Below, piece by piece: positions 1-38,950 of a stretch of 64,000 bases of DNA. The stretch is from an uncultured Gammaproteobacteria bacterium. GTDB lineage: Bacteria > Patescibacteriota > Patescibacteriia > UBA1558 > GWA2-36-10. The position numbers were made by a program, and so were the translations under genes. Location of the stretch: assembly GCA_964633905.1 (NCBI GenBank), contig CAZWIT010000003.1, positions 3,193 to 67,192 on the forward strand. Reading direction: 5' to 3'. The notes under the pieces were generated by a model. That model ran no database searches, had not been told where the DNA came from, and saw nothing but the letters and a program-made list of their open reading frames with translations. Position 1 is the first letter of the stretch, and each line of letters opens with the position of its first letter.

Positions 1-1902
1 AATGAAAATGAAACAAGCACTCTTAAGGTAAAAATAGAAAAAATAAGTAGCTACCGCTCTTGGCGAAAAAAGATATTAATTACAGAAGCTAAAATCAGCG
101 ATGAAACAGGAACAGCCCAGGTTCTTTGGTTTAACCAAAAATTTATTAGCCAAATATTAAAAGTTGGTGACGAAATATTTTTAAGTGGCAACTTTACTTT
201 AAATAAAAAGACTTGGACTAGTTTAAGTCCTACTTATGAAAAAATAAAAGAACACACTATCCACACTGCTCGCCTAGTCCCTTTATACCACTTAAGTGGA
301 AAAATAAGCCAAAAACAAATTCGGTTTTTAATAGACAGAGCCCTAAAAATCAGTAGCTCAATTGACGATCCTTTGCCCGTTGATATTTTAAATAAAGAAA
401 AATATCCTTGGTTATTTACAGCTTTACAAGAAATACACTTCCCTACTGCTAGTGAAAAATTAGACCAAGCTGTGGCTCGTTTAAAATTTCAAGAGCTATT
501 TTACCTACAATGCAAATATCAATTAGCAAAACTTGATTATCAAAACAAGACTAGCCAAAAAGTACTCATTCCTGCCAAAATCTTAAACGAACAAATAAAA
601 GAATTACCATTTAAATTAACAGTTGACCAAAAAACTGCTCTTGATGATATTTTGACTGACTTGAATAAAACTAAAGCTATGAATCGTCTTTTGGAGGGCG
701 ACGTTGGCTCTGGTAAAACAATTGTTGCAATTCTGGCAGCTCTGGCAGTTATTACTAGCGGACAGCAAGTAGCTTTTATGGCCCCGACTGAAATTTTGGC
801 TTACCAGCACTTTATTAATTGCAAAAAAATATTAGGTAAAAAATACCTAGATCAAATTGCCCTATTAACTAATAATTATAATCAAGTAGCTGATAATAAT
901 ATTCTAAAAACTGAATTGACTAAACAAATTAATAAAAATAAAATAAAACTAGTAATTGGCACTCATGCCTTGATACAAGATAAAATAAATTTTGCTAATT
1001 TAAATTTAGTAATAATCGATGAACAACATCGTTTTGGAGTAAGGCAACGCCAAACTTTAAAAGAAAAAAATCCAAATAAACCACCGCACTTACTATCAAT
1101 GACCGCTACGCCTATCCCTAGAACCCTCTCTTTGACTCTTTATGGCGATTTGGATATTTCTTTAATAAAAACAAAGCCCGCTGGTAGGCAAGAAATAAAA
1201 ACCTTTATTATTCCGGAAAGCAAAAGAGCCGACGCTTATAAATTTATTAGGGAAAAAGTTGCCTTAAAACAACAAGTATTTTTTATTTGCCCCTTAATTG
1301 ACGAAAGTGATATTCTAGCCGTAAAATCGGTCAGCCAAGAATACCAAAAATTAAACGAAGAAATATTTCCAGAATTAGAAATCCGATATCTGCATGGCAA
1401 AATGAAAAATAGCGAAAAAGAAAAAATCATGAATGATTTTAAGACTAACAAATTTCCTATCCTAGTTGCTACTTCGGTAATTGAGGTTGGCGTTGATATT
1501 CCTCAAGCCACTGTTATGGTTATTGAAAGCGCTGAAAGATTTGGTCTTTCCCAACTACACCAATTTAGGGGCCGAATTGGTCGTAATGCTTTAGAGAGTT
1601 TTTGTTTATTATTTACTACTGACAAAACCCATGACAATATTAAACGCCTTAAAGCCTTAACTAAAACTAACGACGGCTTCAAATTAGCAGAACTTGATCT
1701 AGAATTAAGAGGAGCTGGCGAAATGTTTGGCACTCGCCAAACTGGCTTAATGGAGTTAAAAATAGCTAAATTATCTGATGTCGAACTAATCAAAAAAGCC
1801 CATACTTGGGCTAAAGAAATTATCAACAATAAAAAATATTTATCTAATATTGAGCTGCAAGCCTTATTAAAAAAACTAAAAACTGAAATGCATTTAGAAT
1901 AA
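1..1902 (+). CDS. recG: ATP-dependent DNA helicase RecG (5' partial). The reading frame is open from nt 1; the annotated Met at 373 is internal.
   Basis: Frame-1 translation is open from position 1 (NENETSTLKVKIEK...), giving the wedge/OB region. Walker A GDVGSGKT, DEQHRFG box and the helicase C-terminal motif QFRGRIGR are present. Confidence 0.85.
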   Translation, partial: NENETSTLKVKIEKISSYRSWRKKILITEAKISDETGTAQVLWFNQKFISQILKVGDEIFLSGNFTLNKKTWTSLSPTYEKIKEHTIHTARLVPLYHLSGKISQKQIRFLIDRALKISSSIDDPLPVDILNKEKYPWLFTALQEIHFPTASEKLDQAVARLKFQELFYLQCKYQLAKLDYQNKTSQKVLIPAKILNEQIKELPFKLTVDQKTALDDILTDLNKTKAMNRLLEGDVGSGKTIVAILAALAVITSGQQVAFMAPTEILAYQHFINCKKILGKKYLDQIALLTNNYNQVADNNILKTELTKQINKNKIKLVIGTHALIQDKINFANLNLVIIDEQHRFGVRQRQTLKEKNPNKPPHLLSMTATPIPRTLSLTLYGDLDISLIKTKPAGRQEIKTFIIPESKRADAYKFIREKVALKQQVFFICPLIDESDILAVKSVSQEYQKLNEEIFPELEIRYLHGKMKNSEKEKIMNDFKTNKFPILVATSVIEVGVDIPQATVMVIESAERFGLSQLHQFRGRIGRNALESFCLLFTTDKTHDNIKRLKALTKTNDGFKLAELDLELRGAGEMFGTRQTGLMELKIAKLSDVELIKKAHTWAKEIINNKKYLSNIELQALLKKLKTEMHLE

Positions 1903-1904
1903 GT

Positions 1905-2981
1905 TTAGTTTGGTTTGCAAACAACACCTTCTTCATTACGAGGACGGCAATAATCATAACGACCATCTCTAATTGAGCAACAATAGAAATCTCCAATTGC
2001 ATTACCGGCTGCACAGTCTAAATTAGTAACACAAGGAACATCAGTTATTTTTTTACAATCTTTAGATTCATAAGGATTATTGATTTCTATTGATTTTAAA
2101 CTAATGCCACAAATAGCACTAAAAGTTTGTCCGCTTAAAGTTTGCCTACCATAACAAATATTAGAGCGACAAGAATCGGCCGTTGCATAAGAGGCACAAC
2201 CATCATTATCATGATTCATACTAACATAAACTGATTTACAATAATCTTCAAGATTTTGCAAAAACAAAGGTCGACATTGGGTATCTTGTCCTAATACCCT
2301 AGTTTCTCGGCAGCTACAACTAGGCTCGATCGAAGAAACACCGTCATAACTACTACCATTGTCAGAACAAGCTGCTACTAAATATTCAACCTGATTAGCT
2401 GGACAACGCTCATAACCTTCGCTAGTAAAATAAATTTCATGAGCACAACCATAACCACTACTACAATCGCTATCTACTCTGCAAACATTTAAATCTTTGA
2501 CATCTATTTTGTCCATAATTTCAGTCAATGGCTTGAAGGTTACTAAATTTACGGAAATTTGAGCTAAAAGTAAATAACCACCAAATAAAAAAGCTAAACC
2601 AATCAAGGTGGTACTAACCGTTTCTTTGGCCATAGCGATCTTTGAAGCATTACCAGCTGCCATCAACCATTGCCAAGCGCCATAAACCAACATAAACATT
2701 GCAAAAGCGCCGGCAATGACACCAGCATAACGATAAATAGCCTTAATATACAAAGCCAAAGAATCCGGCCTAATTTCTATGACCCCATTTTTCACAAACT
2801 GACTGCCAGGTATACTAATATTTGGTCTATACTTGATATAATCTATAGCTAAAGCCGAGCTAGCACTGAGCGTAAAAATACCTAAACATAATAAAAATAA
2901 GATTAGATATTTTTTAGATTTTAAAATATTTTTTATTTTCATAAAATTGATTATGGGCCAGTATAGTAAAAATGCCACCAT
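1905..2981 (-). CDS. Membrane protein with a VirB2/TrbC-like two-helix hydrophobic hairpin and a Cys-rich C-terminal ectodomain (paralog A)
   Basis: N-terminal signal/TM segment. Core AGVIAGAFAMFMLVYGAWQWLMAAGNASKIAMAKETVSTTLIGLAFLFGGYLLLAQI is two TM helices joined by a short polar loop, as in conjugative pilins. More than 25 Cys follow in the last ~200 aa. The core is identical to the neighbouring paralog. Confidence 0.45.
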   Translation of the reverse strand: MVAFLLYWPIINFMKIKNILKSKKYLILFLLCLGIFTLSASSALAIDYIKYRPNISIPGSQFVKNGVIEIRPDSLALYIKAIYRYAGVIAGAFAMFMLVYGAWQWLMAAGNASKIAMAKETVSTTLIGLAFLFGGYLLLAQISVNLVTFKPLTEIMDKIDVKDLNVCRVDSDCSSGYGCAHEIYFTSEGYERCPANQVEYLVAACSDNGSSYDGVSSIEPSCSCRETRVLGQDTQCRPLFLQNLEDYCKSVYVSMNHDNDGCASYATADSCRSNICYGRQTLSGQTFSAICGISLKSIEINNPYESKDCKKITDVPCVTNLDCAAGNAIGDFYCCSIRDGRYDYCRPRNEEGVVCKPN

Positions 2982-4171
2982 TCAGAGGGAATGGTGCCGC
3001 CAAAACCAGTATCAGCCATTTTTTGACGTAAAAGTTTTTCGCCTCTGATCAATTTAGCAGTACAAGGGGCAACGGGGCGGTTGACATCCTGATTAAGGCA
3101 ATTGTAAGACTTATCTAAACAAGATCCGCCGTTACAACTGCAAGTATCAATGCCCTCAACAGTATTAATATAACATACATCTACCGCCTTACCATCCATA
3201 TGCTTTGGAATAGGTGGCTCACAGCTAGGAGCAGCTGCTTCATTACATTCTCCATTACAACTAGCTGTACAATTCTTATAGCAATTGTATAACTGTTCTT
3301 GTTTGGCATAGCTACGAAAAGCGCTTTTGATAATTATACTTTCTCCTTGTCCTAATTGTATTCCCTGTAGAGCCTGCCAAGCTTTAGGCACTAAACGTGC
3401 ATCCGAAGTGGAAACACGATCAATAATAATATTACCTCCAATTACTACCATATTTACTAAACCATTACCATCTTCTAGAGCACAACGTTTACTACTAGTA
3501 GCACTTGGTAAAGGCACGCAAGAACCACTAGCTGGTTGGTCAGCACTTTCAGCAATTGCTAACCAAGTGCAATAATTGTCTTCACAAATTTCTTTACTAG
3601 TAAAAGCACTACAATCTTCAGCAATAGAAACATCTTTGACTTGCAAAGCCTTAAAATTTACTAAATTAGAAGAAATTTGAGCTAAGAGCAAATAACTGCC
3701 AAATAAAAAAGCTAAACCAATCAAGGTGGTACTAACCGTTTCTTTGGCCATAGCGATCTTTGAAGCATTACCAGCTGCCATCAACCATTGCCAAGCGCCA
3801 TAAACCAACATAAACATTGCAAAAGCGCCGGCAATGACACCAGCATAGTTATAAATCGCTCTTATGTATTTAGCCAAAGACTCACCATTAATTCTATACT
3901 CAATATGTTTTTCGCCTGTTTTTTTATTTTCTACTTCTACTTTTTCAGTAAAAATTTTATCCATGCCTGGGATAAAAATATTTGGCCAAAAATATAAAGA
4001 ATCTTTTTGCTTGGCCTGCAGTTCTTCGGCTGTCGGCGTGTCTACTAGCGTACTGCCAGGCTCAGCTGGAACAAATCCTTGCGCTAAAACTTTTGGTAAA
4101 GCAAAAATAAAATTAATACCTAATATTATTAGCACTAAAAAACTAAGTATTATTTTTTTAATAAAAAACAT
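2951..4171 (-). CDS. Membrane protein with a VirB2/TrbC-like helical hairpin and a divergent Cys-rich C-terminal ectodomain (paralog B)
   Basis: Same core helical hairpin as 1905-2981, with a perfectly identical 147-bp nt stretch. The N-terminal region and the Cys-rich C-terminus differ. Confidence 0.45.
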   Translation of the reverse strand: MFFIKKIILSFLVLIILGINFIFALPKVLAQGFVPAEPGSTLVDTPTAEELQAKQKDSLYFWPNIFIPGMDKIFTEKVEVENKKTGEKHIEYRINGESLAKYIRAIYNYAGVIAGAFAMFMLVYGAWQWLMAAGNASKIAMAKETVSTTLIGLAFLFGSYLLLAQISSNLVNFKALQVKDVSIAEDCSAFTSKEICEDNYCTWLAIAESADQPASGSCVPLPSATSSKRCALEDGNGLVNMVVIGGNIIIDRVSTSDARLVPKAWQALQGIQLGQGESIIIKSAFRSYAKQEQLYNCYKNCTASCNGECNEAAAPSCEPPIPKHMDGKAVDVCYINTVEGIDTCSCNGGSCLDKSYNCLNQDVNRPVAPCTAKLIRGEKLLRQKMADTGFGGTIPSEWWHFYYTGP

Positions 4172-4182
4172 TTATAAATATT

Positions 4183-5403
4183 TTATTTTAAACGGATGGT
4201 TTGTAAACGCCCCGTATTATTATCCACGAAATATAATAAAGAACCGTCTGTCGAAGTAAATAAATTACTAGCCGAATAGCTACCATCTGCTCCCACTGGG
4301 CTTGCTAACAATGTTTTGACACCGCTATTTAGATCTACCCGATAAAAATTATCTGGATATTGATAAGCAATTTCTGGATAAATTCCCGCTCCTCTTGGCA
4401 AGCCTTGCGGCACAGCACAATACAAAGTGCTCTCGTCTGCAAAAGTACATTTATCTGGCCAAGTAGGCACATTTAAAGAAACCTTAAGATCTCCCAATTC
4501 ACTAGTACGGCCCTTGGTAATCCATAAATTAGGATTATAATTAGTATTTTCACTATAAACACTATAAAGCAAACTATTGCCTTGAGGCGACCACTGGGCT
4601 GTGAAACCGCCACCAGCTACTTCAAATGATTTTAGATTTTCTCCTTTAAATCCAATCGGAAAAACCTCCTGCCTTTGAGCATCTACATATTTAGTATGTA
4701 GAGCTGCCACTTGATTATCTGGAGAAAAAACCATTTGGGTACTATATGACTTATCCCCCAATGGTTCAAGTAAAGATAATTGTGAGCCGTCATCGTTGGC
4801 TGCTACTAACCAATTATTATCCTCTGTATCACCCATCCATTTAGCAACGATTTGCGACCCTTGATTATTTAAAGAAAAATCTTCTAATTCAATAGGCAAG
4901 GTTACTTGCTCGTTAGTACGAAAATTATACAAAATATTATTGCCGTCTGGATATTCAATAATAGCTTTTTCACCGCTATTATTCCAATTTACATTTTCTA
5001 CTCCATAAAATTTCTTATCACTCAAAGCCACAATCTGACCTTGATCATTAATTCTAAAAAACTGCTGCTTCTCAGCATCATAAAATTGTACACCTTGATT
5101 ACCTTTGGTAGTGCCTTCTACTTTACCATCAATAACTTTAGTAACTTCTGTTAAGCCACCATTAGCTACTGGTGATATTTTACCGCCAACATACTGTTGC
5201 CAAGGCAAACTAGTATTAGTGTTGGCATTAGCATTAATAACTGTAACGTTGCTATTTGGTATGTTGGGAATATTACCAGGCGTAAAATTATCATTAGTAG
5301 TTGTAATAGGACTTGTTCTAAAAAATACCCAATACAAAGCAAAACCTAAAAATAAAATTGCTAGAAAAAATAAAATTACTACTAATATTTTTTTGATGTT
5401 CAT
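4183..5403 (-). CDS. N-terminally membrane-anchored beta-propeller protein (TolB/PD40-like repeats)
   Basis: N-terminal TM helix, then repeated PD40-like motifs (YPDGNNILY, FSPDNQVAAL, WSPQGNSLLY, TDGSLLYFV). Confidence 0.45.
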   Translation of the reverse strand: MNIKKILVVILFFLAILFLGFALYWVFFRTSPITTTNDNFTPGNIPNIPNSNVTVINANANTNTSLPWQQYVGGKISPVANGGLTEVTKVIDGKVEGTTKGNQGVQFYDAEKQQFFRINDQGQIVALSDKKFYGVENVNWNNSGEKAIIEYPDGNNILYNFRTNEQVTLPIELEDFSLNNQGSQIVAKWMGDTEDNNWLVAANDDGSQLSLLEPLGDKSYSTQMVFSPDNQVAALHTKYVDAQRQEVFPIGFKGENLKSFEVAGGGFTAQWSPQGNSLLYSVYSENTNYNPNLWITKGRTSELGDLKVSLNVPTWPDKCTFADESTLYCAVPQGLPRGAGIYPEIAYQYPDNFYRVDLNSGVKTLLASPVGADGSYSASNLFTSTDGSLLYFVDNNTGRLQTIRLK

Positions 5404-5450
5404 AAACCCATATTACTTAAAATTTGATAATAAATTCTGAAATCAATTTG

Positions 5451-5996
5451 TTAATCTGGCAATAAATTCTTAAACCAATTTGTGAAAGTATCCCATATCT
5501 CCTGAACCAGAAATGAAGGGTCGGTTAACATTCTTATGCCCAATCCTAAAATAGCAATAATGATAATAATCAAAGCAAAAAGTAGAAGACTAACAATAGC
5601 CCAAAGTCCCATTTCTAAACCACTCAATTTTGGTATCAAAGGATTGCCTAATAAATTACCAACTATTATTTGAATAGTCCAAGTAATATAAGTAACTATT
5701 AATAATACCAAAGTGGCACTACAAGCTATATTAAAAATACGCAAAGAGCTTTTAGCAGCAAACTCCCTAACCCTTTTCTCCACCTCCTCTTTTACTTGCT
5801 TCTTCATCTTTTCCTGCAACATATCTGAACTATCACTTTGACGGAAGCGATCTAACAAACGCTTGCGATACTGTTCGTTCTGATTTTGCTTATCTAACTC
5901 AACTGGATCAAAAGATTCTGCTGGCGCTTGATAATTAGCCCCTGTTCTATCAGCAAATAACTCTCTACGATATTGATTTGGTAAGGTTTGTGCCAT
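5451..5996 (-). CDS. Small membrane protein: charged N-terminus and two or three C-terminal TM helices (T4SS-locus component)
   Basis: Hydrophobic helices LVLLIVTYITWTIQIIVGNL and LWAIVSLLLFALIIIIIAILGLGI. Located inside the T4SS-like gene block. Confidence 0.3.
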   Translation of the reverse strand: MAQTLPNQYRRELFADRTGANYQAPAESFDPVELDKQNQNEQYRKRLLDRFRQSDSSDMLQEKMKKQVKEEVEKRVREFAAKSSLRIFNIACSATLVLLIVTYITWTIQIIVGNLLGNPLIPKLSGLEMGLWAIVSLLLFALIIIIIAILGLGIRMLTDPSFLVQEIWDTFTNWFKNLLPD

Positions 5997-5998
5997 GT

Positions 5999-6559
5999 TT
6001 ATTTTTTATCCTGCCACCAAGCAGCATCAACTAGCCACTTGCCATTTGACTTTATTAAATCAAACTTAATATCTTGATAATATACTACTTGGGATAAATC
6101 AGTTTTAGTTTCAATTCTCTGAGTTTTGACAGTAATCACAGCACTATCTTCTGACCACTCATCAATAACACTAGAAATACTTTTCGTGCTAATACCATTA
6201 TAATTAGGCTGTTTTTCTCCTAGCTCAATACTACTCAAATATTTATTCATACTTTTAGTGCCCAAAGGAGCTAGTTCCTTCAAATTAACGCCTAGCTGAT
6301 CAGTGGACCAACTGCCAAATCTTTCTGCATAATTTTTGGCTAAATTAACGGCTGATAATTCATCGCTATTTAGAGCAGCCGGTAAATTTGGATCAAAATC
6401 AGCGTTGGCGCTAGGCGGAATAAATTTTGGCACTTCATTAGTATTGGTATTATTGATAGGTCTAAAAACATCCATTGAACGCCAAGCCCAAAATAGAAGT
6501 GCTAAAACCACTATAATGATAACTGCGATAATAATTTTCTTTCTTTTTTGTTGATCCAT
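5999..6559 (-). CDS. N-terminally anchored extracytoplasmic protein, possibly a VirB8-like (NTF2-fold) component
   Basis: A single N-terminal TM helix (IIIAVIIIVVLALLFWAW) and a ~150-aa soluble domain. The position just downstream of VirB4 matches where VirB8-like genes sit. The fold assignment is a guess. Confidence 0.25.
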   Translation of the reverse strand: MDQQKRKKIIIAVIIIVVLALLFWAWRSMDVFRPINNTNTNEVPKFIPPSANADFDPNLPAALNSDELSAVNLAKNYAERFGSWSTDQLGVNLKELAPLGTKSMNKYLSSIELGEKQPNYNGISTKSISSVIDEWSEDSAVITVKTQRIETKTDLSQVVYYQDIKFDLIKSNGKWLVDAAWWQDKK

Positions 6560-6581
6560 ATATTTTTATTATTTCCTTATT

Positions 6582-8501
6582 TTAAGCATGTTCGGCTTCA
6601 GCCATCATAGTTTCTTCAAATTCTTTTTTAGCCTCTTCAATCTCAAGCAACTGTCTCGGATCAGAAGTAATTACCTGATGTTCTGTATAAGAAGCTTGAA
6701 TTTTTATAGCCGCATGTTTAGCCCCAGCAAAAAAGATACCCTCACCCACACCAGATTCTAACAATAAATATTTTTCACCTTCGGTTAACATGAAGGTTTT
6801 TTGAATCAAATTAATAGCTGCTGGCGACTGTTTGAGTAACAATTGCATTGAAGAATTGGTAACAATAGCATTACCAAAAGGCGAAGTTAAAAAGTCATTA
6901 ACATCCTGAGTAATAGTCGTTACTCCTAAATAATATTTACGGCAACGTTTAACTAGTGCAAACATGAATTTAGCACTATCTTCATGACGCATCATAATCC
7001 AAGCCTCATCTACTACCAACATTCTCTTCTTCATTTCGCTACGAATAATATTCCAGATATAATTCATAATGACATACATAGCAATTGGACGTAATTCATC
7101 TTCTAAATCGCGAATACAAAATACTATCAACTGATTATTAACCTTAACGTTGGTGGGACTGTTAAACAAACCTGAAAAAGTACCTTGCGTATATTTTTTA
7201 ATACGCAAAGCCATGTCCTCACCACCTTCCATACTAGATAATATTTCTTCTAAATCAGACATCAAGGGTGGCTGAATATTAGTCAAATCACTGGCTGGAG
7301 TAATATCTTTTTTAGCATAAGTTTCGAGTAGCGCTCGATCAAGCAATGAATCTTCAACATTAGTAATGTCTCCAATCATCAAACGAATCAAACCCTTTAA
7401 AGTAATCACGGCGCTACGCAAAATATCCTCTGCTTTTGTATCCCCTCCCACTCCCCTAGGCAAATCAAAAGGATTAAGTTTACTTTCCGAATTTAAAGAA
7501 ACATTAATATAAGCGCCATTTACTGCCTCTGACAAATGTTGATACTCATTTTCTGGGTCAACAATAATTACATCAGTACCCAACATCAGAGAGCGTAATA
7601 CTTCGAGTTTTATAGCATAACTTTTACCAGCGCCAGAAGTAGCAAATACTACCATATTGGCATTTTGCAAACTAAAACGATCAAACAAAATTAAACTATT
7701 ATTGTGGCGATTAATACCATACAAAATACCATCATCAGAAGTAAGTTCTGAAGATACAAAAGGAAAAGAAGAAGCAATCGGTGAGCTGTTCATGTTAGTG
7801 GTAATAGCCAGCTCATCATTACCTAATGGCAAAGTTGAATTAAAGCCTTGCTCCGACTGGAAAAAAGCTCTTCGTGTATAGATCAATTGTGTGCCTAAAA
7901 TATTTTCAATTCTATCAGATGCTAAGTCCAGCTCTTTTAAATCTTTGGCGTAAATAGAAACATACAAAGCAAATTGGAAAAATTTTTCCGTACCTTGACT
8001 CAAAGAGTCACGCAAAGCTTCAATATCCCTTAGGGCAGTTTCAGCAATTGGATCACGAGGAGCTCCTTTTTCATGATCAGCAATAATCTGAGCTTCCATG
8101 GTACCGACTTTATTACGCAACTGTTTTAAGACAATATTAATAGCTAAAGGATAAAAAAACATACTAATATCCAAAGTCAGACTCTCATTGATGATTGGAG
8201 CAAACCAGCCAATAGTAACATAACGTGGATAAGTCACCACAAAAATAGTACGAACATATAAATCGTTAAGTTGTAAACATTTACTTTCTACTTTAAAAGC
8301 AGCCGGAGCAATAATATCACGAACCGAAACTATGCCCTCTCGAAAAACTTTTTCAGCTTCCAATAATTCTTTTTCTTTTTCTAACTTTGCTTTTTGGTCT
8401 GGTTGACCCTTTAAAGCAGCCATCTGCTCTTCGACTTCAGCAGCTGATTTTTTTTCTAAGCTAGCCTGTTTTATTTTATTGGCTTCAAACATTGGTTTCA
8501 A
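6582..8501 (-). CDS. virB4: Type IV secretion ATPase VirB4/TrbE family (C-terminal 639-aa portion, ATPase core)
   Basis: Walker A in VVFATSGAGKSYAIK, Walker B in LVVDEAWIM, and the overall VirB4/CagE arrangement. Overlaps the upstream N-domain ORF by 17 nt. Confidence 0.75.
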   Translation of the reverse strand: MKPMFEANKIKQASLEKKSAAEVEEQMAALKGQPDQKAKLEKEKELLEAEKVFREGIVSVRDIIAPAAFKVESKCLQLNDLYVRTIFVVTYPRYVTIGWFAPIINESLTLDISMFFYPLAINIVLKQLRNKVGTMEAQIIADHEKGAPRDPIAETALRDIEALRDSLSQGTEKFFQFALYVSIYAKDLKELDLASDRIENILGTQLIYTRRAFFQSEQGFNSTLPLGNDELAITTNMNSSPIASSFPFVSSELTSDDGILYGINRHNNSLILFDRFSLQNANMVVFATSGAGKSYAIKLEVLRSLMLGTDVIIVDPENEYQHLSEAVNGAYINVSLNSESKLNPFDLPRGVGGDTKAEDILRSAVITLKGLIRLMIGDITNVEDSLLDRALLETYAKKDITPASDLTNIQPPLMSDLEEILSSMEGGEDMALRIKKYTQGTFSGLFNSPTNVKVNNQLIVFCIRDLEDELRPIAMYVIMNYIWNIIRSEMKKRMLVVDEAWIMMRHEDSAKFMFALVKRCRKYYLGVTTITQDVNDFLTSPFGNAIVTNSSMQLLLKQSPAAINLIQKTFMLTEGEKYLLLESGVGEGIFFAGAKHAAIKIQASYTEHQVITSDPRQLLEIEEAKKEFEETMMAEAEHA

Positions 8502-9171
8502 CGTTTAGTTTATTTATGTCCTCTAGCGGTTGTTTTTGAAACATACTAGGATTATAACTATTGTAATATAATTCGATTAGAGCTTGCGTATTCAAACGTT
8601 GGCTTCTTAAGCCCATTGAACTTAAGCCTGATTCAATAAAATCACAACGTTTATTCAACTGGGAGTTAAATTCTTCAAAACGTTTGCGGCTTAAACGCAC
8701 TACTTTAGCTGTAGAAAAAACAGCCCCAAAACGACTAGAAAATTTGCGGCCCTTATCAGCTATCGGGCTATAAGGAATAATAATATAAAACTTTTTACTC
8801 ATAATTTTTTCTAGAGTCAAAAGTTCTTCCACAAATTGCCTATAATCTGCCGTTTGCATGCGCAGCAACTCATTGGTTTGTTCTTTTTCCATCTTTCTGA
8901 GACGTTGAAAATAATCATCAATATTAAGAGGCCTAGACTGAATCATAATTTGCAAAGGATAGTCCAAGGTGTTTAAAAAACCTACATAACTACTAATGAT
9001 AGCCGCTTGTTCGTCTTCAGCTTTTAAATCAAAATTGATCGAAGAAACAAGTAGCACACCTCTGACTGAGCCATCATTTAAAACAACCATATCCTCTCTT
9101 ATTTCTGCGATATCCAAAAATCTCTGAGTAGAGGTATTGGGACGATTACCGGCTAATTTTTTATTACGCAT
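8485..9171 (-). CDS. VirB4 N-terminal domain as a separate ORF (or a frameshifted VirB4 5' part)
   Basis: FLDIAEIREDMVVLNDGSVRGVLLVSSINFDLKAEDEQAAIISSYVGFLNTLDYPLQIMIQS matches the conserved N-terminus of Gram-positive-type VirB4 proteins. The 17-nt out-of-frame overlap with the ATPase ORF is noted. Confidence 0.55.
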   Translation of the reverse strand: MRNKKLAGNRPNTSTQRFLDIAEIREDMVVLNDGSVRGVLLVSSINFDLKAEDEQAAIISSYVGFLNTLDYPLQIMIQSRPLNIDDYFQRLRKMEKEQTNELLRMQTADYRQFVEELLTLEKIMSKKFYIIIPYSPIADKGRKFSSRFGAVFSTAKVVRLSRKRFEEFNSQLNKRCDFIESGLSSMGLRSQRLNTQALIELYYNSYNPSMFQKQPLEDINKLNVETNV

Positions 9172-9173
9172 AT

Positions 9174-9641
9174 TTATTTTTTATTTATTGCAGAATTATT
9201 AATAATGTTGGCATCCATTTCACCCTTATAAACACCGCCGGTATCAATAATCAAAGACAACTCTGATAATTTTTTATTAGGCAATAAGCTTTTGTTTATA
9301 ATAGGCGCCTCCGCTACCACGCCTTCGCCTTTAATTTTAAATTCTTCTACTTTGATATATTCTTTACGCCAAATACGAATTTTAGGGCGCTTAATCGTTT
9401 GAATGACATTTAATAAAAATAAATGAAAATTCACTCCATTTATTTTCACAAAAGCAAAAACCACTACGAATAAAACAATTAAGCCTGTTTGCGTCAAAAA
9501 TAAAGCAAAATCAGAAAGCTTGTAACTTAGAGCAATGAGCAAACCACCTGATAAAACAATAATAAACTGTCGGACAGTAATTGGCCCCCAGATTTTATCT
9601 TCAGCATCAATAAATTGTGGTACGATAAATCTATTCTGCAT
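9174..9641 (-). CDS. VirB3/PrgI-like small membrane protein
   Basis: 155 aa with two N-terminal TM helices, immediately upstream of VirB4 as in Gram-positive conjugation loci. Confidence 0.45.
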   Translation of the reverse strand: MQNRFIVPQFIDAEDKIWGPITVRQFIIVLSGGLLIALSYKLSDFALFLTQTGLIVLFVVVFAFVKINGVNFHLFLLNVIQTIKRPKIRIWRKEYIKVEEFKIKGEGVVAEAPIINKSLLPNKKLSELSLIIDTGGVYKGEMDANIINNSAINKK

Positions 9642-9644
9642 TTT

Positions 9645-10985
9645 TTAAAATCGTAATAATTTATTTAAATCACCAATGGTATTAAACTCTTCTAAGGTCA
9701 AAACTTGTTCACCTGTCTGTGTGCGTTTGCCAATTAAATTGGAAATTTCTTGACCCTGCATCAAACTGTTAGCCCCTAATTCCAAATATTGTTGATAAAC
9801 AGGACTCTGGCGCCAGGCTGCAATACCAGCTGCCTTTTTGCTCACTGAATCTTTTTCTAAAATAGCAATCTTTTCGTAAATTCTTTGTGCTCTAGAACTA
9901 GCATCAATACCTAGACGACGAAAATTATCAATGCTCATATTAGCTAATTCATCAACCGGACCAACTAAAACGTGTTTTACTGGCACTTTAGCGGGAGCCG
10001 GCGCTTGAGTAATTACATCGTGCAATTTAGCTTTAGCTGTATTTACATTTTGTGGCCTAATTACCTTTGGTAAACTAGGCGAACTGGCTATAGTTGTCTC
10101 TTTTTCTACTTCTTTGACTGGCTCAATAAGCGGTGCTGCTTTTGGCTCTGAGGCCACAACTGGCTTAATGTCTTTGTTTTCAGGAATAGACTCTTGATTA
10201 ATAACAGGCGCTTCGCTTTTGATTATCGGATCTGCTGGCTTGACTGGCCTTGTTTCTGGCATAGCAATCACTGGTGCCAGCACTGGCACAAAATCTGTTT
10301 TTAAAATAGCAACATTCTTTGGTTTTATTTCCAGCTTGGCAAAAGACTCTTTAATGCTATTTTTATGATCTATTTCATTAGCCTTAATAACTAGGCCTCC
10401 CTCTTTTTCAATATTAGCTTTAATGGTTTTAACAAGTGATAAAATAATATCGATGATTTTAGCGTCTATTATTTTATTATTTACAGTAAGCTTACTTAAA
10501 TATTCTCTAACAATAATGCTGTTCTTACGATTACGAAAAAAATCATACAATAAATCAGAAAATAATTGCCGATTATATTGATCTAGATTCAAAGTTTGTT
10601 TTTCTAGGAGCTTGTTGACTATTTTTTCTAAACTATATTTTTTACTATCATCAACAGCTGTTTTTATTGCTGCCTCCTGCAAATGTCTCTCGTCATCTGG
10701 ATGAAAAGCATGCTTAGCCTTATCTCGTGGCTTACCACCTAAACTAAGTAGATAAAAACTATCGTCTTTAGGAGCTACATAAATAGTCGGCAAAATATTT
10801 TCCGCTATTTCAATATCGTCTGACGCAGAATTACTTACTGCCGAAGCATCAGGAACTGTCACCATTACGTCTTGAGCCTGGTGCCAAGACTGTAGTTTAC
10901 CAGTCTGATCCTTGACTAACAGATCATCAAGCCAAGAACTATTTCGAGCTGAAGCATTATTGTTATTATTCAATCCTGATGGCAT
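9645..10985 (-). CDS. Hypothetical protein with a Pro/Lys-rich central linker, first gene of the VirB3/VirB4 block
   Basis: No TM segment. Central low-complexity PxxP/KP-rich segment. No recognisable catalytic motif. Confidence 0.3.
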   Translation of the reverse strand: MPSGLNNNNNASARNSSWLDDLLVKDQTGKLQSWHQAQDVMVTVPDASAVSNSASDDIEIAENILPTIYVAPKDDSFYLLSLGGKPRDKAKHAFHPDDERHLQEAAIKTAVDDSKKYSLEKIVNKLLEKQTLNLDQYNRQLFSDLLYDFFRNRKNSIIVREYLSKLTVNNKIIDAKIIDIILSLVKTIKANIEKEGGLVIKANEIDHKNSIKESFAKLEIKPKNVAILKTDFVPVLAPVIAMPETRPVKPADPIIKSEAPVINQESIPENKDIKPVVASEPKAAPLIEPVKEVEKETTIASSPSLPKVIRPQNVNTAKAKLHDVITQAPAPAKVPVKHVLVGPVDELANMSIDNFRRLGIDASSRAQRIYEKIAILEKDSVSKKAAGIAAWRQSPVYQQYLELGANSLMQGQEISNLIGKRTQTGEQVLTLEEFNTIGDLNKLLRF

Positions 10986-18239: not shown

Positions 18240-21200
18240 TTATGGATTAACTACTATCCAACCATCAAAAGCAATAGCATCTGCTCCTGTGTCGTCCCCT
18301 AAACCCCAACGATCAACTATATACATCTTAGGCTTAAAGCAGGCAGCATTTGGAGCTTGCCCAGTTACGCCCTTGGCTGCACAAGAGTGAGTTGGATCAT
18401 TAGTATATTGATAGTCATGATAAAAAATCTTATAACCCTGGCGACAAGCATTATCCAAACCACCAAAACCTGCAAGTCCAGCCGGCGTAGTGTCACAAGA
18501 ACCTACTGTGTCATCAGCGCATACATTAGGCATATTTTGATCAGATCTACAACTGAATAAAGCATTTTTATAGCGACCAGGAGCTGAAGAAAATCTACTA
18601 TCATCCCAATCCATCCTAATATTTACTACTGGCATATGATCTGGATGGGCATAAAAATATGATTTTACTGCTACGAACAAACTTTCTTTTGAGCTGATAA
18701 TACCATCTTGCTCTTCATTGATAGTAATACCACTTTGATAACCAACTATGCTTTGGTCAGCATTTCTAACAGCGCAAGCTGTTTCACCACAAACTTTCAA
18801 AGCGCGCGGCTTATAATCATCGCCAGCATAAGTATTTGGACTTAAGGTACTGTCATCAATAAATTCACTATCGTCACTGACTGCCACATAACTACCATTT
18901 ACTAAATTTAAATTATAAACATTAGCAAAAATTTTAGTCATACGGCTCCGAGCTTCAGGCCAGGCTGAAGCCAATGTAGATGAAGAAAAGAAAGTTACAG
19001 CCGAAGGTTGCTGTGGCCAAATTTGAGTTGGCGGAATTCTAGTAATAACTGCTTTATTAGGATTAAAGTAATCTAAGGCTGCGCCAAAATGAGTAAATAA
19101 ATTATCGCCCTGTCCAGATATACCAAAATAATAAACATCACGGCCGAGCTGATAAATAGCTCTATTATTAGATGAACGATAATAATAACTCAGCCAATCA
19201 TTTGGATCAGTGTCGTGTATTCTTAAAGTATCATTAGCTCTAGAATAGCGCCACCACATATCAGTACGCACCCAAGATTTATCACCAGCTGCGTCTAATT
19301 GCGTGATCAATCTACACTGCTGATAGCAATCACTGCCACAATCTATACCTTCTTTTTCTGGATCGTATGGCGTATCCGTGCGAATAATATTTCTTCTACT
19401 AGTAATTCTGCGATAAGAGGACAAATCCAAGAAGCCAACACTATCAGCTATTGTAATATCCTGACAAACTGCTCCAGCCTCATCGCCAATCGGAGTTGTA
19501 CAGCCCTCAACCTCTTCACCTAAACTAGAATTAACACCAGCGCCAACATCCAATACTATGCTACCATAAGTTTGATTTTGAGGACCAATAATGGTACAGG
19601 ATCCGGTACCGCCTGGCAAAGGATTAGGTATCGAATTAGGAATATTAGCTGTGACAATATTATAAATAATATCTAAACAACCAGATACACTAGCATAATT
19701 ATCATAAGACTCTTGATGAATGATGGCGCCTGGACATTCATAATCAACGCTTAATGTTCCTGTATTTTGAAATTCACCAAAATCACTACACCAATAAATC
19801 ATAGTACCGTTCTCATTATGGCTTTCACTACCAACTGCATTTACACAATTTTTAAAAGCACAATTCAAATCACCATTACAAGGCTGGGAAACATCAATAG
19901 CGCTATAATAAGGTTCATTACTCAAACAAATTGGTGTACTGTTATTAGTATTACTAGGAGGATTTCCTTCTGTGTGGCTACAATTTTCTTGCTGACAAAC
20001 TGTTACTACATTATTCACTCCTGCTGGAAAGGCTGGTTTTACATATATACCATGAGACATTGGACTACACCAACGATCTTGTTCTTTTTTATTATGACCA
20101 TTCCAACCACGCTGATCAAAACCACCAACATTAGTATTGTTAAAATCGCCATCCAAATATTGATTAAGCCAACTTTCATGCCAACCAGGCGCGCACTGCT
20201 CTAAATTATCAGCTACCCCATCTCCTGTTTCTTGTACGCCATAATTTTTATAAGTACCAATCGGGAAATACTCTTGACCAGGACGACTAGCAAAAGGCCA
20301 AACAATAGCACTTTCACCCCAATTACCATCCCTATTAATATAAGCATCATAAAAATATAGCTCTACTAACCCTGTACTCAAGGCATTGGCGTCAAAAATA
20401 TAATCAAAATTACTTAAAGGTAATACAGGTACCTTGCTACTAGCCGTTAAACCTAATGTCCTAGTGCTATCAAAATCTGAGGCTAAAAATAAACTACTAC
20501 CTTCACCAGTCCCGTATTCACCAAGGGAAGGACCCATGCCCAGCGGACTGCGCCAATTATCATTCCAATTAGTCTCAGTAAACAAAGCATTGGCTCCATT
20601 GCGATGCAACCAAGAAACACCTAAGCCAGTATAGGCTGATTGCACTTCATTTTGCCAGCCCATTTTTCTGACGCCATTAAATAACTGACCCGAAATGCCA
20701 TCAGTTACACTATCATCAGGACCATAAGCGCGTAATACTTCTGGATCAGTGTTTAAATAGCCAGCCACCAAAGTTGTCAAAGCTGGAGTATTATTAAAAG
20801 TACTATCCATATAGCGCAAATGGACTTTGGTGCCAGCTGGCACTTTAGCTAAAACTGAACAAAATTGCATATTGTATGGCGCCCCAGCAGTAAAAGTACT
20901 AACACAATAATATCTAGTTTCCGGCACTACATAATCTTCAGTAGCTGCACAGAATAAAGCATCTTGCCCAGTTGGATTATAGTAGCCAGCTTCTTGGTAA
21001 TTTTCATATAAACTATTTGTACCAGAAATTTGTTCAGCAGGATACCATTGGTTACAATAATAATCATTACCAGCATCTTTGACTAATTGATTATTATAAT
21101 CATAGCTTAGACAAATGCCTGACCAATTATTAATATTTTCTATTTTAGTATATTTTTCACAAAGACCATTTTGTTGCGAAACGCCATTATTGTCTACCGT

Positions 21201-24200
21201 GTCGCACTCGGCATTATTATTACAGGAGTAAACACTATTATTACCTGATACATCTGTCTTGCCAGCAGTACAAATTGCATTTGGTTGTGGCAATGACTTT
21301 GGATAATAACGCACTGTACTAGCACCATAAGTTACCTTACGATAAGACTGCTCACAACCATTAGGAGTCATAATCCGCGGATTATTTTGACTATTAGTAT
21401 CATTCTGACAATAATTAGCCGCACTATAAGACCTTAAAGCACCTTTATTTTCTTCGGCTGGAAAAATACTATGCGGGAAAGGCGCATCAATAGCAGCATA
21501 ACCTCTAGTACTTAAAGCCATGGTCGAAGTGCTAGTATCATTGATCTTAGGATTGAGCCAACAATAACCTGAATCACACTCACCTACATAAACACCTGCT
21601 ACAGCACCGACACTGCAAGCTAAACCATCATAAAGCACTGTGCCAGCTGCATTGCGACAAGCCGCAAAGAAATTACCATCATTAGTAACATTATCAAAAT
21701 AAGGGTAAGCAACTCTCACACTGCCATCATCAAAAGTATTAACCACTAAATCTTTTACTGGTAGCATATTAGGCAAAGAATAACCTAAATATTCTTCATC
21801 GCTCCACTGTAAATGCTCATTAGTACCTGTATCACGATTTTGATAATAAGCTGTACTCAAAACTGTCAAAGCAGGGTTTGGCTCTGCCCATTCGCTACAC
21901 TTAGTAACATTATTATTGCGGTCGTACTCAGTACAAGCTGATACGTCATCACAAACCGTTTTATAGCGATTGCTATCCCTATCCCAAACAGCTGTTGAAG
22001 AACGACAAGCTAACCATTCACTACATTGTCGATCTTTTTTAACTTTAACTAACATATTGGCATCTAGAGAACAAGAACCATCAATTTCTGGATCACAAAC
22101 AACTGGGCTGACTGCTTCTGCTCTAGCTAAATTTTCATCATAAGTTTTACCAGAATCATAGAGAGCTATAACTTCTTCATGCTTAGACTGCCAATAGTTG
22201 GCATCATAAAGTAAAATACAGCCTCCATTTTTATCAACACCGCCAGCGCAGGATTTTTGATCAATACTACTATTATTATAGTAATAATATTCCTGACAAG
22301 CTGGTGTCCAACGACCAGGTCCATCAAGGTCAGGATTTACATTATTAGTTGCCCCTTCACAGGCTAAACGACTATCAAAATCAAGGATATGACCATCATC
22401 AACATTACGACAAACACCATCTAAAGAGTTTGGATCAATACTAGGATCACAAGCTTCTGGATCTGAAGGGTCTCTTAAAGTGGTACACAAATTTTTATCT
22501 GCCGGACAATTAGCAACTAAATTATCAGTAGCTAAATCCCCAGCATCAAGACCAGGTGTAGCATTTGGCCAACAACCAACTGGATTAACAGTGAGTAAAG
22601 AATCTTTCCTAAAGAAGCCAGTCAAACCGTCAGCAGTTGCCCAAACACAATTATTAAATGCTAAATCATCCCCGTCTTCATCTACATCAGACGTATCAAA
22701 AACACCGTCACTATCACTACAGCCTAAAATATTATCTGTATTAAGCGAACTTGTTTTAAACCAACCAGAGTAGCTAATACCATTAACAATAATATTTGTT
22801 TGATAAGTACAAGTACCGCTACCTGGATCACGGAAATAGTAGATACCCTTGTCAGAAGAAAATTCCTCACAACCTAAGCCATCAGAATCACAAAGCGTAC
22901 TAGCGTATTGATCTGGATTATTAATTTTATAAACTGTATTCAAAAGATAGGGGTTGTTACGATCTGGCAAACCCAAAGCTTGACAACCTTTATAATCTTG
23001 GGAGCAATATTTAGTATTATCTGGCACTAAGTAAGCCAAATTATCAGCTGGCACAACTATTTGAGCTGCATTGCCAGCATTAAAAGTTTCTTCAAAAGGA
23101 TAAGTAGAATTTTGAGTATCAATCACTGCCGAACAACCAATAGCCTCCACTCGGCAGAGATTAGAAAATGATCTTAAATTAAATACTTTATTATTAGTAT
23201 CAGTATAACTCTGACAACCTAAATGGTAACCAACATAAGGGCTATCACAAGCAATTGGTGTTTCCCATGAGTTCCTTACCACTGAGATATTATCCCCTAC
23301 TTCTTTAAGTATAATATTATCGACATAAACACTAAAACCGGAACCAGCAACAATAACATTGAAATTCAAACGTAGATTATTTAAATCTAAACCAGTTGGA
23401 TCGGCTGTATAAATATAACTAAAGTAATGCCAATCGCCTGCTGAAATATTACGTAATTGACTATCATTAGGATCATAAAACACCTTAGGAGTAAGTATAC
23501 TAGGACTAGATAATAATACTTCTACACTATTTACTTGTATTTCACTCTTCATCCACCAACTTAACTTGTATTGCCGTGGACCTTCACCAATATTAGACAA
23601 AGGACGATAAAATGCCGCGCTATTGTCATTAGCATTTATTTTGATTGAATGACCATTATTTTCCAAAGCTTCTGAAGATAAGCTAACCACATCACTACTA
23701 CTAGCCCATGGGGCAAAAGTACCTTGCTCAAAATTATTAGAAAATATTTCGCGGACATTATTAGCAGTATTGCCAGTATAAAGATGACAACCATTAAATT
23801 CGGCACTACAAGCAATGCTTAAACTAGGAATTGTTTTATAAACTTCGCCAGAAGCTGTGCGTCGATATTCATGACAATCACTACTTGCATAAATTACCCG
23901 ATCTTGCAAACGATAAGATGGGCGACCATCAGTGTCAAAAAATTGACGACAATTTGGATTTACATCAGCATCACTACAAGTAGCAACTGGATATTGTGGC
24001 GCTGTATTATCCAAACAAGTTTCACCACCCGGAGCAATATTAGTACAAGGAGCTAAAGAGCCATTAGCCTCGGGAGCAGCATTAGTAACAAGTATCTGCC
24101 AAGTACGAATTTGATAACCAGCTGTATCTGACCCTTCCCAAGTGTAATAAGTAGTTCCTAAACTTTCAGCCACACATTGACGAATATAAGTAAAGTATTC

Positions 24201-33332: not shown

Positions 33333-34760
33333 TTGACTAAAATACTAATTTTTATTATGATATTAGTTAGTTTACTAATAGTATTTAAAATAGATTATAT
33401 TAGTATTTTTATTAAAAAAATTCTTACTAAATTAGCGATCCGCTTAGCCGATGGCTTTATTTGGGCAAAAAAAAGATCTCCCAAAGCTCTACGTCCTCTG
33501 AGTAAGGCTTTATTTGTAATTACTAAATTTACCCTACTGCCAATTATTTTATTGATTTACAAAAATATTGTCTTAATCAAAATTAAATTAAAAGGATTTA
33601 ATTTACGTAATGCTAATTATATAAAATTTTTTAAACGCATTTTCCCTGGCGTAGTGGTGGCTTTGATTTTTATTGGCACTACTACTCAAAATATTTTTGC
33701 TAAAGATTACAATACTGAAGAATATGCTAATCATACCTTATTATCATCTTTAATCAGAGCCGATGAAACCCAGTGGAGTGAAATTATTGAAGATTCAGAA
33801 CCCGCTAAAGCTAATAATGAAAGCAATAATTTTTTAGCTGAGCAAGGAAATTTACAAGAAATTGTTTACAATGATCCTAGTAACCCCAGCGAAACTAATA
33901 ATAATGATACAGGTGGTATTTCTGCTGATGCTACCAGCCTAGTAGTCGGTCCAGAAGAAAATGAACCTAGCGTTATTACTCGTACTACTAATATTCAATA
34001 TACAGTAGAAACAGGCGATGTCTTAAGTACTATCGCTGATAAATTTAATATTACGGTCAACACTATTCTCTGGTCTAATAATCTAACTTGGACTTCAGTT
34101 ATTAAGCCTGGACAAAAATTAACCATACCGCCAGGCTCTGGTATTAATCACGATGTAGTGCGTGGCGACACGATTGCTTCAATTGCCAAAAAATACCAAG
34201 CTGATGCCCAAAAAATTATTAGCGCTAATGGACTGGCTAGTGCCAGCGATATTCAAGTTGGCGATCTTATTTTTATACCAGAAGGTGTCAAGCCAACTCA
34301 GATTGTTTCTTCTTATAAACCACCTAAGAATAGCGAAAAACCACAAACTGGCAACGCCTATAGCGATGAATATGTTCCTCCAGCTACGACTGCCGCTACT
34401 GGCACTAAATTATTGTGGCCCGTCTTAAGTCATCGTATTACTCAATATTATAGTTGGCGTCATACTGGCTTAGACGTTGGCGATAAGGTTGGTAATCCTA
34501 TTTATGCTGCTGAAGACGGCAAGGTAGAAAGATCAGGCTGGTCCAATGGCTACGGCTACAACGTAATTATTAATCATGGCAATGGCGTACAAACACTCTA
34601 TGGTCATGCTAGCAAACTATTGGTTAAAGCTGGCGACACTGTTTCCCGAGGACAAACCATAGCTTTGATAGGATCAACTGGCTGGTCAACTGGACCCCAT
34701 CTACACCTAGAAGTAAGGGAAAGTGGTGTTAGGAAAAACCCATTAAACTATATTAAATAA
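33333..34760 (+). CDS. M23 family peptidoglycan peptidase with two LysM domains
   Basis: LysM motifs YTVETGDVLSTIADKFNITVNTILWSNNL and HDVVRGDTIASIAKKYQADAQKII. C-terminal M23 motifs HTGLDVG...YGHASKL...GSTGWSTGPHLHLEV. Confidence 0.8.
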   Translation: MTKILIFIMILVSLLIVFKIDYISIFIKKILTKLAIRLADGFIWAKKRSPKALRPLSKALFVITKFTLLPIILLIYKNIVLIKIKLKGFNLRNANYIKFFKRIFPGVVVALIFIGTTTQNIFAKDYNTEEYANHTLLSSLIRADETQWSEIIEDSEPAKANNESNNFLAEQGNLQEIVYNDPSNPSETNNNDTGGISADATSLVVGPEENEPSVITRTTNIQYTVETGDVLSTIADKFNITVNTILWSNNLTWTSVIKPGQKLTIPPGSGINHDVVRGDTIASIAKKYQADAQKIISANGLASASDIQVGDLIFIPEGVKPTQIVSSYKPPKNSEKPQTGNAYSDEYVPPATTAATGTKLLWPVLSHRITQYYSWRHTGLDVGDKVGNPIYAAEDGKVERSGWSNGYGYNVIINHGNGVQTLYGHASKLLVKAGDTVSRGQTIALIGSTGWSTGPHLHLEVRESGVRKNPLNYIK

Positions 34761-38311: not shown

Positions 38312-38441
38312 TAGTAATCCTAAGAATATTTAATTTTACTTGTAAAGTCAAATACTATGATTTATACTTAATAAGAAGAGGCTAGCTAAATTTACTTTAA
38401 TAAACATAGTCTCCGCACCAGCACAACCTTAAGGAGAAGGC

Positions 38442-38933: not shown

Positions 38934-38950
38934 GCAATATATCCTTCCCT

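Follow-up and report, generated by a model that had tools for sequence, protein, structure and literature searches.

Two tandem genes joining a pilin-type hairpin to different outer domains

We analysed a stretch of 64,000 nucleotides (contig CAZWIT010000003.1 of assembly GCA_964633905.1, positions 3,193 to 67,192), hereafter called the window and numbered from its first letter, in which two adjacent genes on the minus strand, named here A and B, close a chromosomal type IV secretion system (T4SS) gene cluster of an ultrasmall bacterium of the Patescibacteria. Both genes encode a membrane hairpin resembling VirB2-like pilins, which is followed by a long C-terminal domain that differs between the two, and they share an exact repeat of 149 bp within the hairpin region. 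The comparisons reported below make it very likely that this repeat results from segmental gene conversion between A and B. Throughout the text, W stands for the genome of the window, L-numbers for related loci or genomes and P-numbers for database proteins. The gene pair and its parts are as follows.

2951-4171, minus strand: gene B, 406 amino acids (aa); signal peptide, N-terminal segment predicted to be extracellular, VirB2-like pilin hairpin, Cys-containing linker and predicted M15 (VanX/VanY-type) metallopeptidase
1905-2942, minus strand: gene A, 345 aa; signal peptide, short N-terminal segment, VirB2-like pilin hairpin and C-terminal domain with 20 Cys
2966-3385, minus strand: M15/VanY-type peptidase domain of gene B, residues ~263-402, with SAFRS, HxxGxAxD and EWWH motifs
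1908-2525, minus strand: Cys-rich outer domain of gene A, residues ~140-345, with the conserved C-terminal motif N-x-DC...YCC...DYCRP...G-x-x-C
2526-2765, minus strand: extended similar segment of gene A, 240 nt, 90% identical to 3644-3883, with paralogue-specific substitutions at the edges
3644-3883, minus strand: extended similar segment of gene B, partner of 2526-2765
2581-2729, minus strand: exact 149-bp repeat, copy in gene A; putative conversion tract, encoding transmembrane helix 1 (TM1), the loop and transmembrane helix 2 (TM2) of the pilin hairpin
3699-3847, minus strand: exact 149-bp repeat, copy in gene B, in the same reading frame and codon phase as the copy in gene A

The start codon of gene A was placed at the ATG at 2942, as in the database protein P0001 (345 aa) and in all orthologues; the mechanical open reading frame (ORF) reaches 2981. 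The product of gene B is identical to the database protein P0008. The Pfam family T4SS_pilin (PF18895, curated cutoff 26.6 bits) matched gene A with 27.0 bits and gene B with 31.5 bits, and genes of the VirB3 and VirB4 types lie upstream of both on the same strand, as expected for pilin genes of a T4SS cluster. In size, however, they depart from classical pilins, which polymerise into a pilus and measure ~70-120 aa in the mature form; as they measure 345 and 406 aa with long C-terminal domains (206-230 aa), we filed them as pilin-module fusions and not as classical pilins.

In A and B alike, hydropathy windows gave a signal peptide and, after it, a pair of hydrophobic helices connected by a short basic loop that contains Lys (NASKIAMAKE). 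The corresponding helices in the AlphaFold2 models span residues 59-94 and 99-134 in gene A, modelled with a predicted local distance difference test score (pLDDT) of 67, and residues 96-131 and 136-173 in gene B, whose model (pLDDT 51) was too poor to use. The predicted topology is that of a protein exported by its signal peptide, with the two-helix hairpin in the membrane, the Lys-containing loop in the cytoplasm and a disulfide-rich C-terminal domain outside; it is the combination of a signal peptide with a two-helix hairpin and a short loop that would place the Cys-rich remainder in the extracellular space.

The C-terminal part of gene B matched the Pfam family VanY with 28.2 bits (cutoff 25), and a profile built from seven gene B orthologues matched the VanX structure 1r44 (E=7.8e-6) with the HxxGxAxD and EWWH motifs aligned. 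R286, H324, D331, E397 and H400 are invariant across the seven orthologues. The family match, the Zn ligands (H-x6-D and H), the catalytic Glu and the substrate Arg of the M15/LAS peptidases are thus all found in gene B, which by these sequence features carries a LAS-type Zn peptidase (VanX/VanY-like) with predicted activity. For gene A, a Foldseek search of the model against the PDB gave no match with E<1, leaving the Cys-rich domain without a significant fold match; the best fold probability, itself not significant, was for the archaeal conjugation pilus 8dfu and came through the hairpin. When the Cys-rich outer domain alone was searched in a set of 5.8 billion proteins, only the three closest orthologues were recovered. 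This module probably has a binding role.

A preliminary description of the locus had credited each outer part with more than 25 Cys and had stated that everything outside the repeated core had diverged completely. We counted 20 Cys in the C-terminal part of gene A and 16 in that of gene B. The N-terminal parts of the two proteins are weakly homologous, with a common PNIxIPG motif and a BLASTP alignment spanning A47-204, and the C-terminal parts are unrelated domains (Cys-rich and M15 peptidase, respectively), not diverged copies of one domain.

An exact in-frame repeat in the hairpin region

The two copies of the repeat are in direct orientation with a spacing of 1118 bp. Their maximal exact match (2581-2729 = 3699-3847) contains, and exceeds by two positions, the 147-bp identity reported before (nt 2583-2729 = 3701-3847). 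The peptide encoded by the repeat is AGVIAGAFAMFMLVYGAWQWLMAAGNASKIAMAKETVSTTLIGLAFLFG in gene A and gene B alike, as had been quoted correctly. The extended segments differ at 25 of 240 aligned positions, and under random placement of these differences a difference-free run of 149 nt has P ~8e-10. In the window, a 44-mer taken from the core has exactly two occurrences, compared with none in 100 shuffles. The antisense ORFs noticed at 2670 and 3788 are present and are, as had been recognized, by-products of the repeat. The silent cassettes carrying the same core for which a search had been suggested were not found within the 64 kb, where a tblastn search with the core peptide returned only the two copies in genes A and B and no third.

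The GC content at third codon positions (GC3) in W is 0.39 in the converted core and 0.20-0.24 in the rest of genes A and B. Across two-gene loci the core likewise exceeds the outer domain (0.376 vs 0.260; 45 genes; Wilcoxon p=5e-11). A comparison restricted to fourfold codon boxes was mixed, and the single-copy control was small (7 genes), mixed and uninformative. GC-biased gene conversion could be the source of the raised core GC3, for which these values give a hint only.

The gene pair is old

The order consisting of a gene of ~406 aa, the pilin-M15 gene, the pilin-Cys-rich gene and a convergent recG was found also in L001 and L003. L001 is a 192-kb Patescibacteria contig whose gene A orthologue is 39% identical to that of W, and in L003 (GCA_964533435.1) the identity of the orthologues is 79% (A) and 89% (B). 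Genome and metagenome collections were scanned and yielded 58 non-redundant loci, 24 of which have exactly two adjacent pilin-fusion genes, and the conserved position of the pair is supported by 21 genome loci besides L001 and L003. Judged by these comparisons, the tandem arrangement of A and B is ancient.

The preliminary description had named a recent simple duplication as the alternative that would refute its reading, the identity then reflecting nothing but the youth of the duplicated pilin module. The tandem direct orientation and the perfect identity of the repeats would fit such an origin, but positional orthologues down to 39% identity exist for A as well as for B, each gene having an N-terminus and an outer domain of its own, and paralogue-specific substitutions common to W and L003 lie on both sides of the tract. 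Since the positional orthologues of both genes reach into distant genomes, a recent duplication is contradicted and excluded, and we assign it practically no probability.

The hairpin module itself is widespread, with 8146 cluster representatives at E<=1e-3 and 525 at 1e-10; nearly all of the best 150 measure 200-900 aa. We also observed relatives with two to six hairpin-module matches in a polypeptide of 450-900 aa (P0023, P0026, P0033, P0045, P0063, P0069, P0072, P0085 and P0095); P0095, for instance, has six such stretches in 555 aa, and these relatives are apparently multi-hairpin proteins or fused arrays. The order of the two genes differs among lineages: the gene with the other outer domain precedes the M15 gene in the P0018 lineage described below and in L033, and the M15 gene comes first in W, L001, L003 and L005-L011.

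The hairpin core evolves in concert within genomes

In order to compare the cores of the pairs across genomes, we used a profile alignment of 82 codons for a nearest-neighbour analysis, in which the two paralogues were mutual nearest neighbours at the nucleotide level in W, L001, L013, L015, L016, L019, L021 and L022. The L001 pair shares 172 nt exactly, and its encoded core, GGILAGAVALFMLVYAGWQWLFAAGNSGKINQAQETIRMTLIGLAFLFGGYLLLSLI, is unlike that of W; the L003 pair shares 86 nt exactly, with eight differences between its copies. Over the 22 comparable pairs from two-gene loci the median core identity was 0.87 at the nucleotide level, and the longest exact run per genome was 340 (L037), 172, 149, 143, 107, 98, 89, 89 and 86 nt, down to 10. 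The codon-identical runs were concentrated at the end of TM1, in the loop and at the start of TM2. In L037 (812-kb contig, 5968-7859), the 340-nt identity takes in the signal peptide and N-terminal segment together with the entire hairpin, and divergence starts at the outer domain.

The strongest evidence came from quartets of two genes in each of two genomes. For W_A, W_B, L003_A and L003_B, 13 sites inside the 149-nt tract group the sequences by genome, all of them synonymous, and none groups them by paralogue; in the ~90 nt flanking the tract, 12 sites group them by paralogue and two by genome. Other quartets gave by-genome/by-paralogue counts of 58/0 (W-L001), 44/2 (L001-L008), 43/0 (L013-L019) and 27/2 (L019-L021). 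Between W and L003, the synonymous divergence (dS) of the core is 0.86-1.18, similar to that of the neighbouring genes (0.74-0.77), but within W it is 0. The nonsynonymous divergence (dN) of the core between W and L003 is also 0, which indicates a strong constraint on the hairpin module. Purifying selection on the protein is nevertheless insufficient as an explanation, because the dS of the core is ~1 between genomes and 0 within W, and conversion after the split of W and L003 suffices.

The same numbers bear on the possibility that identity is forced at the nucleotide level by a regulatory element or a structured RNA in the core. The predicted RNA fold of a 206-nt segment has a z-score of -1.9, which would agree with such an element; the value is marginal, though, and no Rfam match was found in the region. 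A conserved element would moreover keep synonymous sites alike between genomes, and the opposite was observed, since they are free between genomes (dS ~1) and identical within. We therefore regard a nucleotide-level constraint as very improbable.

The paralogues within a genome are thus closer to each other than to their orthologues, and synonymous sites are homogenised in a delimited tract with paralogue-specific flanks, as expected of gene conversion. On the strength of these alignments we consider segmental gene conversion between A and B, seen in about 20 genomes, very likely, and the comparisons show that the process has returned over deep time. Ongoing gene conversion, one of the two possibilities raised in the preliminary description, is thereby supported: the pair is old and orthologous, yet its cores are near-identical at synonymous sites within a genome and different between genomes.

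Several observations weigh against this interpretation. The L005-L009 quartet has four sites by genome and 17 by paralogue, and the cores are drifting apart in L005, L007 and L009, so that conversion appears episodic and not universal. If the assembler merged copies of the repeat that were nearly identical, the perfect identity may be a slight exaggeration. The T4SS_pilin scores of A and B barely exceed the Pfam cutoff, and the structure models of the two proteins are of low to moderate confidence. Finally, a shared assembly interface, which we invoke below as the rationale for homogenisation, is something that we infer.

The short-pilin arrays of Patescibacteria offer a comparison for the degree of homogenisation, as the median core identity in L023 and L024 was 0.57 at the nucleotide level. 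These arrays consist of six tandem pilin genes in L023 (5075-9838) and of 11-12 in L024 (6990-13338), most of them short (121-359 aa, and ~150 aa in L024), and they represent the classical type of Patescibacteria pilin array.

Assembly of the repeats

A metagenome assembler could in principle have collapsed or cross-polished the repeats, and could have mis-joined contigs such as L025 (see below) through them. We observed scaffold gaps of 100 N inside the upstream pilin-fusion gene in L075 (5154-5335) and L076 (5832-6001), and position 1 of the contigs L083-L085, L087 and L088 coincides exactly with the start codon of the M15-type gene. Such breaks are consistent with breaks in the assembly graph caused by repeats or by strain polymorphism, and they lend the artefact some credit, as does the length of L025, which is only 2.4 kb. 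The pattern, however, is found again in assemblies made independently in different studies, among them the 192-kb and 812-kb contigs, and the eight differences between the L003 copies were retained, so that assemblers were able to separate the copies. Collapsing is also unable to yield 13 fixed synonymous differences that sort by genome. Overall, an assembly artefact seems improbable to us as the source of the pattern, and gene conversion remains the preferred explanation.

Outer domains persist among relatives and turn over between lineages and strains

W, L003 and L001 have the same pair of M15 and Cys-rich outer domains in the same order, as stable orthologues. Between W and L003 the dN/dS of the outer domains is 0.19 (A) and 0.08 (B), compared with 0.01 for VirB4. 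Positive selection on the outer domains was considered for this pair of genomes and rejected, their dN/dS lying above that of VirB4 but well below 1.

Other relatives have different combinations. In L026 and L027 the core is W-like and the N-terminus of the second gene is homologous to that of A, but the outer domain is of another kind, which we called type C (...CC...YAI...CGSGW...LGY); the nucleotide homology to W extends to window position 2554, directly after TM2, and resumes at the 3′ end of recG, at 1901. In a neighbour-joining tree of the M15 domains the partner types A and C are interleaved; the tree is weak, and its deep branches are so short and unsupported that the number of swaps is not countable. 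In one related population, an identical M15-type protein (P0018) is present on 13 contigs, with either a 307-aa allele (L074, L078 and L086) or a 369-aa allele (L077 and L075) as its neighbour. The flanks of these alleles are 95-99.4% identical and their core regions 92%, and there is no homology between them in the N-terminal variable segment or in the outer domain.

Two sequences look like chimeras. L025 has a single gene between the usual neighbours, whose N-terminus is 68% identical to L001_B (31% to L001_A) and whose outer domain is 45% identical to L001_A (22% to L001_B); a deletion between the two repeats is predicted to give exactly such a gene, in frame. In P0019, the N-terminus of an M15 gene is joined to an outer domain of the P0021 type. 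Both may be real recombinants or mis-joins of the assembler.

The preliminary description had extended the idea of a recombination hotspot to a pilin-like variation of antigens or receptor specificity, in which variable ectodomains would be shuffled around a constant membrane anchor. As a programmed system, in the manner of pilE/pilS of Neisseria, this would mean that the constant core serves to swap outer-domain cassettes at high frequency within a clone. Much of what has just been described could be read in this way: outer domains differ between lineages, the homology of the second L026 gene to W breaks off precisely where the core ends, one population has two alternative alleles next to an M15 gene that is identical, chimeras exist in L025 and P0019, and the repeats are in frame, so that a deletion between them yields an intact chimera. 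The locus nonetheless lacks the equipment of such a system, as the window has two copies of the core and no silent cassettes, no recombinase or reverse transcriptase was found among its ORFs scanned against Pfam, and no guanine-quadruplex (G4) motif was found in positions 1-8000. Among the database matches with a W-type core from NCBI assemblies, the L003 genome was the only source. Furthermore, W, L003 and L001 have retained outer domains and order across a dS of ~0.8 and far beyond, and the converted segment is the constant hairpin, not the variable part. The cores of the strain-level alleles, in turn, differ more than their flanks, from which it follows that the replaced unit includes the core and that the exchange does not pivot on it. 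Programmed variation is accordingly unlikely, though we grant it somewhat more than the other alternatives. What finds partial support in the earlier proposal is the turnover of outer domains, which occurs among lineages as well as among the strains of one related population, together with the existence of chimeras; a programmed system actively shuffling them at this locus is not supported. Taken together, the sequences partly support outer domains that are modular around a conserved anchor on longer evolutionary scales and between strains.

Two more specific devices were rejected as well. A diversity-generating retroelement does not agree with the lack of a reverse transcriptase among the scanned ORFs, with the differences between the L003 copies, which are mostly C/T and not A-specific, or with a repeat that encodes transmembrane helices and not a ligand-binding tip. 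An invertase was discarded on the lack of a recombinase among the same ORFs.

Genomic surroundings

Upstream of the pair, the cluster was delineated by Pfam matches and gene order, and downstream the pair is bordered by recG.

4183-10985, minus strand: T4SS-like cluster upstream of, and on the same strand as, genes A and B
9645-10985, minus strand: unannotated gene of 446 aa in the T4SS cluster
9174-9641, minus strand: PrgI/VirB3-like gene (Pfam)
8485-9171, minus strand: gene with TraC-like N-domain, 228 aa (Pfam)
6582-8501, minus strand: VirB4-type ATPase (P-loop_TraG), 639 aa (Pfam)
5999-6559, 5451-5996 and 4183-5403, minus strand: three conserved genes, below the curated Pfam cut-offs
373-1902, plus strand: recG helicase gene, convergent, truncated at the start of the window; marks the conserved 3′ limit of the pilin pair

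The gene order of the T4SS cluster is the same in L001, L003 and L074, and the labels of the related contigs read Patescibacteria, Parcubacteria, Nomurabacteria or Komeilibacteria. Two genes that overlap by 17 nt (8485-9171 and 6582-8501) share the VirB4 function, and this split (228 aa and 616-636 aa) is retained in L001, L003, L074 and L078. The 406-aa gene at 4183-5403, directly upstream of the pilin pair, has no Pfam match and is conserved at that position in every related T4SS locus examined; its counterparts in L001, L003 and L074 measure 405-407 aa, and its dN/dS between W and L003 is 0.03.

Farther away, a giant ORF (18240-27113, minus strand, 2957 aa), whose sole Pfam match is the carbohydrate-binding family CBM_4_9, probably encodes a large surface protein. 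A gene with the architecture LysM-LysM-M23 peptidase (33333-34760, plus strand) is the second cell-wall peptidase gene of the window, and 38226-44443 (minus strand) contains five tRNA genes in three clusters.

Chromosomal T4SS including arrays of VirB2-like pilins have been described for Patescibacteria (PMC12102498; PMC10633639; PMC12857230). The system was essential for the epibiotic lifestyle in one species tested (PMC10633639), and the pilin genes are regarded as its most unusual feature for a monoderm (PMC12857230).

Discussion

The 149-bp identity is very probably the footprint of a recent non-reciprocal homologous recombination between direct repeats lying 1118 bp apart on one chromosome, with the limits of the tract set by the loss of homology at the N-terminal segments and at the unrelated outer domains. 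Because such events recur in the family, the hairpin module evolves in concert within each genome; the unrelated flanks lie beyond the end of homology and therefore evolve separately. Gene conversion between tandem paralogues at different loci is well documented in bacteria, and the mechanism itself is not new. What is new is that concerted evolution is restricted to one module, in multidomain proteins anchored by a hairpin that belong to a monoderm-type T4SS.

The closest precedent for genes A and B is the set of pilin paralogues of the Bartonella Trw T4SS, where tandem copies of trwL (VirB2 pilin) and of trwJ-H have been reported to be subject to "diversifying selection and concerted evolution" (Nystedt et al., 2008, Mol Biol Evol 25:287, as cited in PMC3483213 and PMC12102498). 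As far as these citing accounts go, both cases concern tandem VirB2-type pilin paralogues of a T4SS in which recombination homogenises parts of the genes and the surface-exposed parts differ, and in both the bacteria live attached to host cells. Bartonella, however, is a diderm with a system of the MPF-T type and small classical pilins in five to eight copies, whereas A and B are two genes of a monoderm-type Patescibacteria T4SS. Unlike in Trw, conversion between A and B is confined to the membrane hairpin of multidomain fusions whose outer domains are mutually unrelated.

The published VirB2-like arrays of Patescibacteria comprise 2-11 divergent pilins with a mean identity of 25% and a maximum of 54% (Quinonero-Coronel et al., 2025, PMC12102498), and tandem pilin genes proved essential in Southlakia (Wang et al., 2023, PMC10633639). 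The array description in PMC12102498 mentions neither concerted evolution nor enzyme fusions. These arrays belong, like A and B, to the PF18895 family and to the same chromosomal T4SS cluster with PrgI/VirB3 and VirB4, but the short arrays (L023 and L024), in agreement with the published account, have divergent cores (median 0.57), whereas the pairs of the W type are homogenised (median 0.87) and have long C-terminal domains.

A comparison with the antigenic variation of Neisseria brings out mainly differences. In the pilE/pilS system, non-reciprocal transfer of the RecA type takes place between pilin gene copies, with conserved segments giving the homology, and many promoterless silent donors together with a G4-forming initiator serve to move the variable part into one expression locus. 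The pilins of Neisseria belong to another pilin superfamily than A and B, and, unlike in Neisseria, the 64 kb hold no silent donors, positions 1-8000 no G4, and at A and B it is the constant part that is transferred.

The M15 domain of gene B has functional parallels in the cell-wall hydrolases of other T4SS, such as VirB1, PrgK and TcpG (cited in PMC12102498, refs 73-76). As with these, gene B encodes a predicted peptidoglycan-active enzyme that belongs to a T4SS cluster and is membrane-anchored, which makes such a role plausible for the M15 domain. In the cited cases, the hydrolases are lytic transglycosylases, CHAP/NlpC-P60 enzymes or muramidases without a fusion to a pilin hairpin, whereas the M15 domain of gene B is fused to one. 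The literature searched yielded no account of a pilin fused to an M15 or a Cys-rich domain. A cell-wall hydrolase otherwise absent from these loci may be provided by the M15 fusion.

Homogenisation of the hairpin may be tolerated or even favoured, if both proteins have to fit the same assembly site or machinery of the T4SS, or the same pilus lattice; recognition by one assembly site, or packing in one lattice, would make matched hairpins advantageous. The repeats may also mediate occasional deletions or exchanges, from which new combinations of N-termini and outer domains would arise. Joined into one scheme, which we put forward as doubtful but worth stating, the hairpin would be a standard handle by which interchangeable extracellular modules, such as the peptidase or binding domains rich in Cys, are mounted on the pilus of the T4SS or at its base. 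Conversion would match all handles of a genome to one assembly machine, recombination through or around the handles would create new combinations of N-termini and outer domains and strain-specific alleles that determine to which host bacterium the epibiont attaches or which one it breaches, and the pilin-M15 protein would be the long-missing hydrolase of the VirB1 type.

As a practical warning, repeats of this kind break or mis-join metagenome assemblies. For the biology of the family, our results suggest that one widespread subclass of Patescibacteria "pilins" consists of hairpin-anchored multidomain surface proteins, whose anchor is kept uniform by conversion and whose outer domains differ and turn over. 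This gives a concrete hypothesis for the display of enzymes and adhesins by the T4SS, with the pilin-M15 fusion as a candidate for the missing cell-wall hydrolase, and the natural alleles of the outer domains could be used as a test set for the determinants of host specificity.

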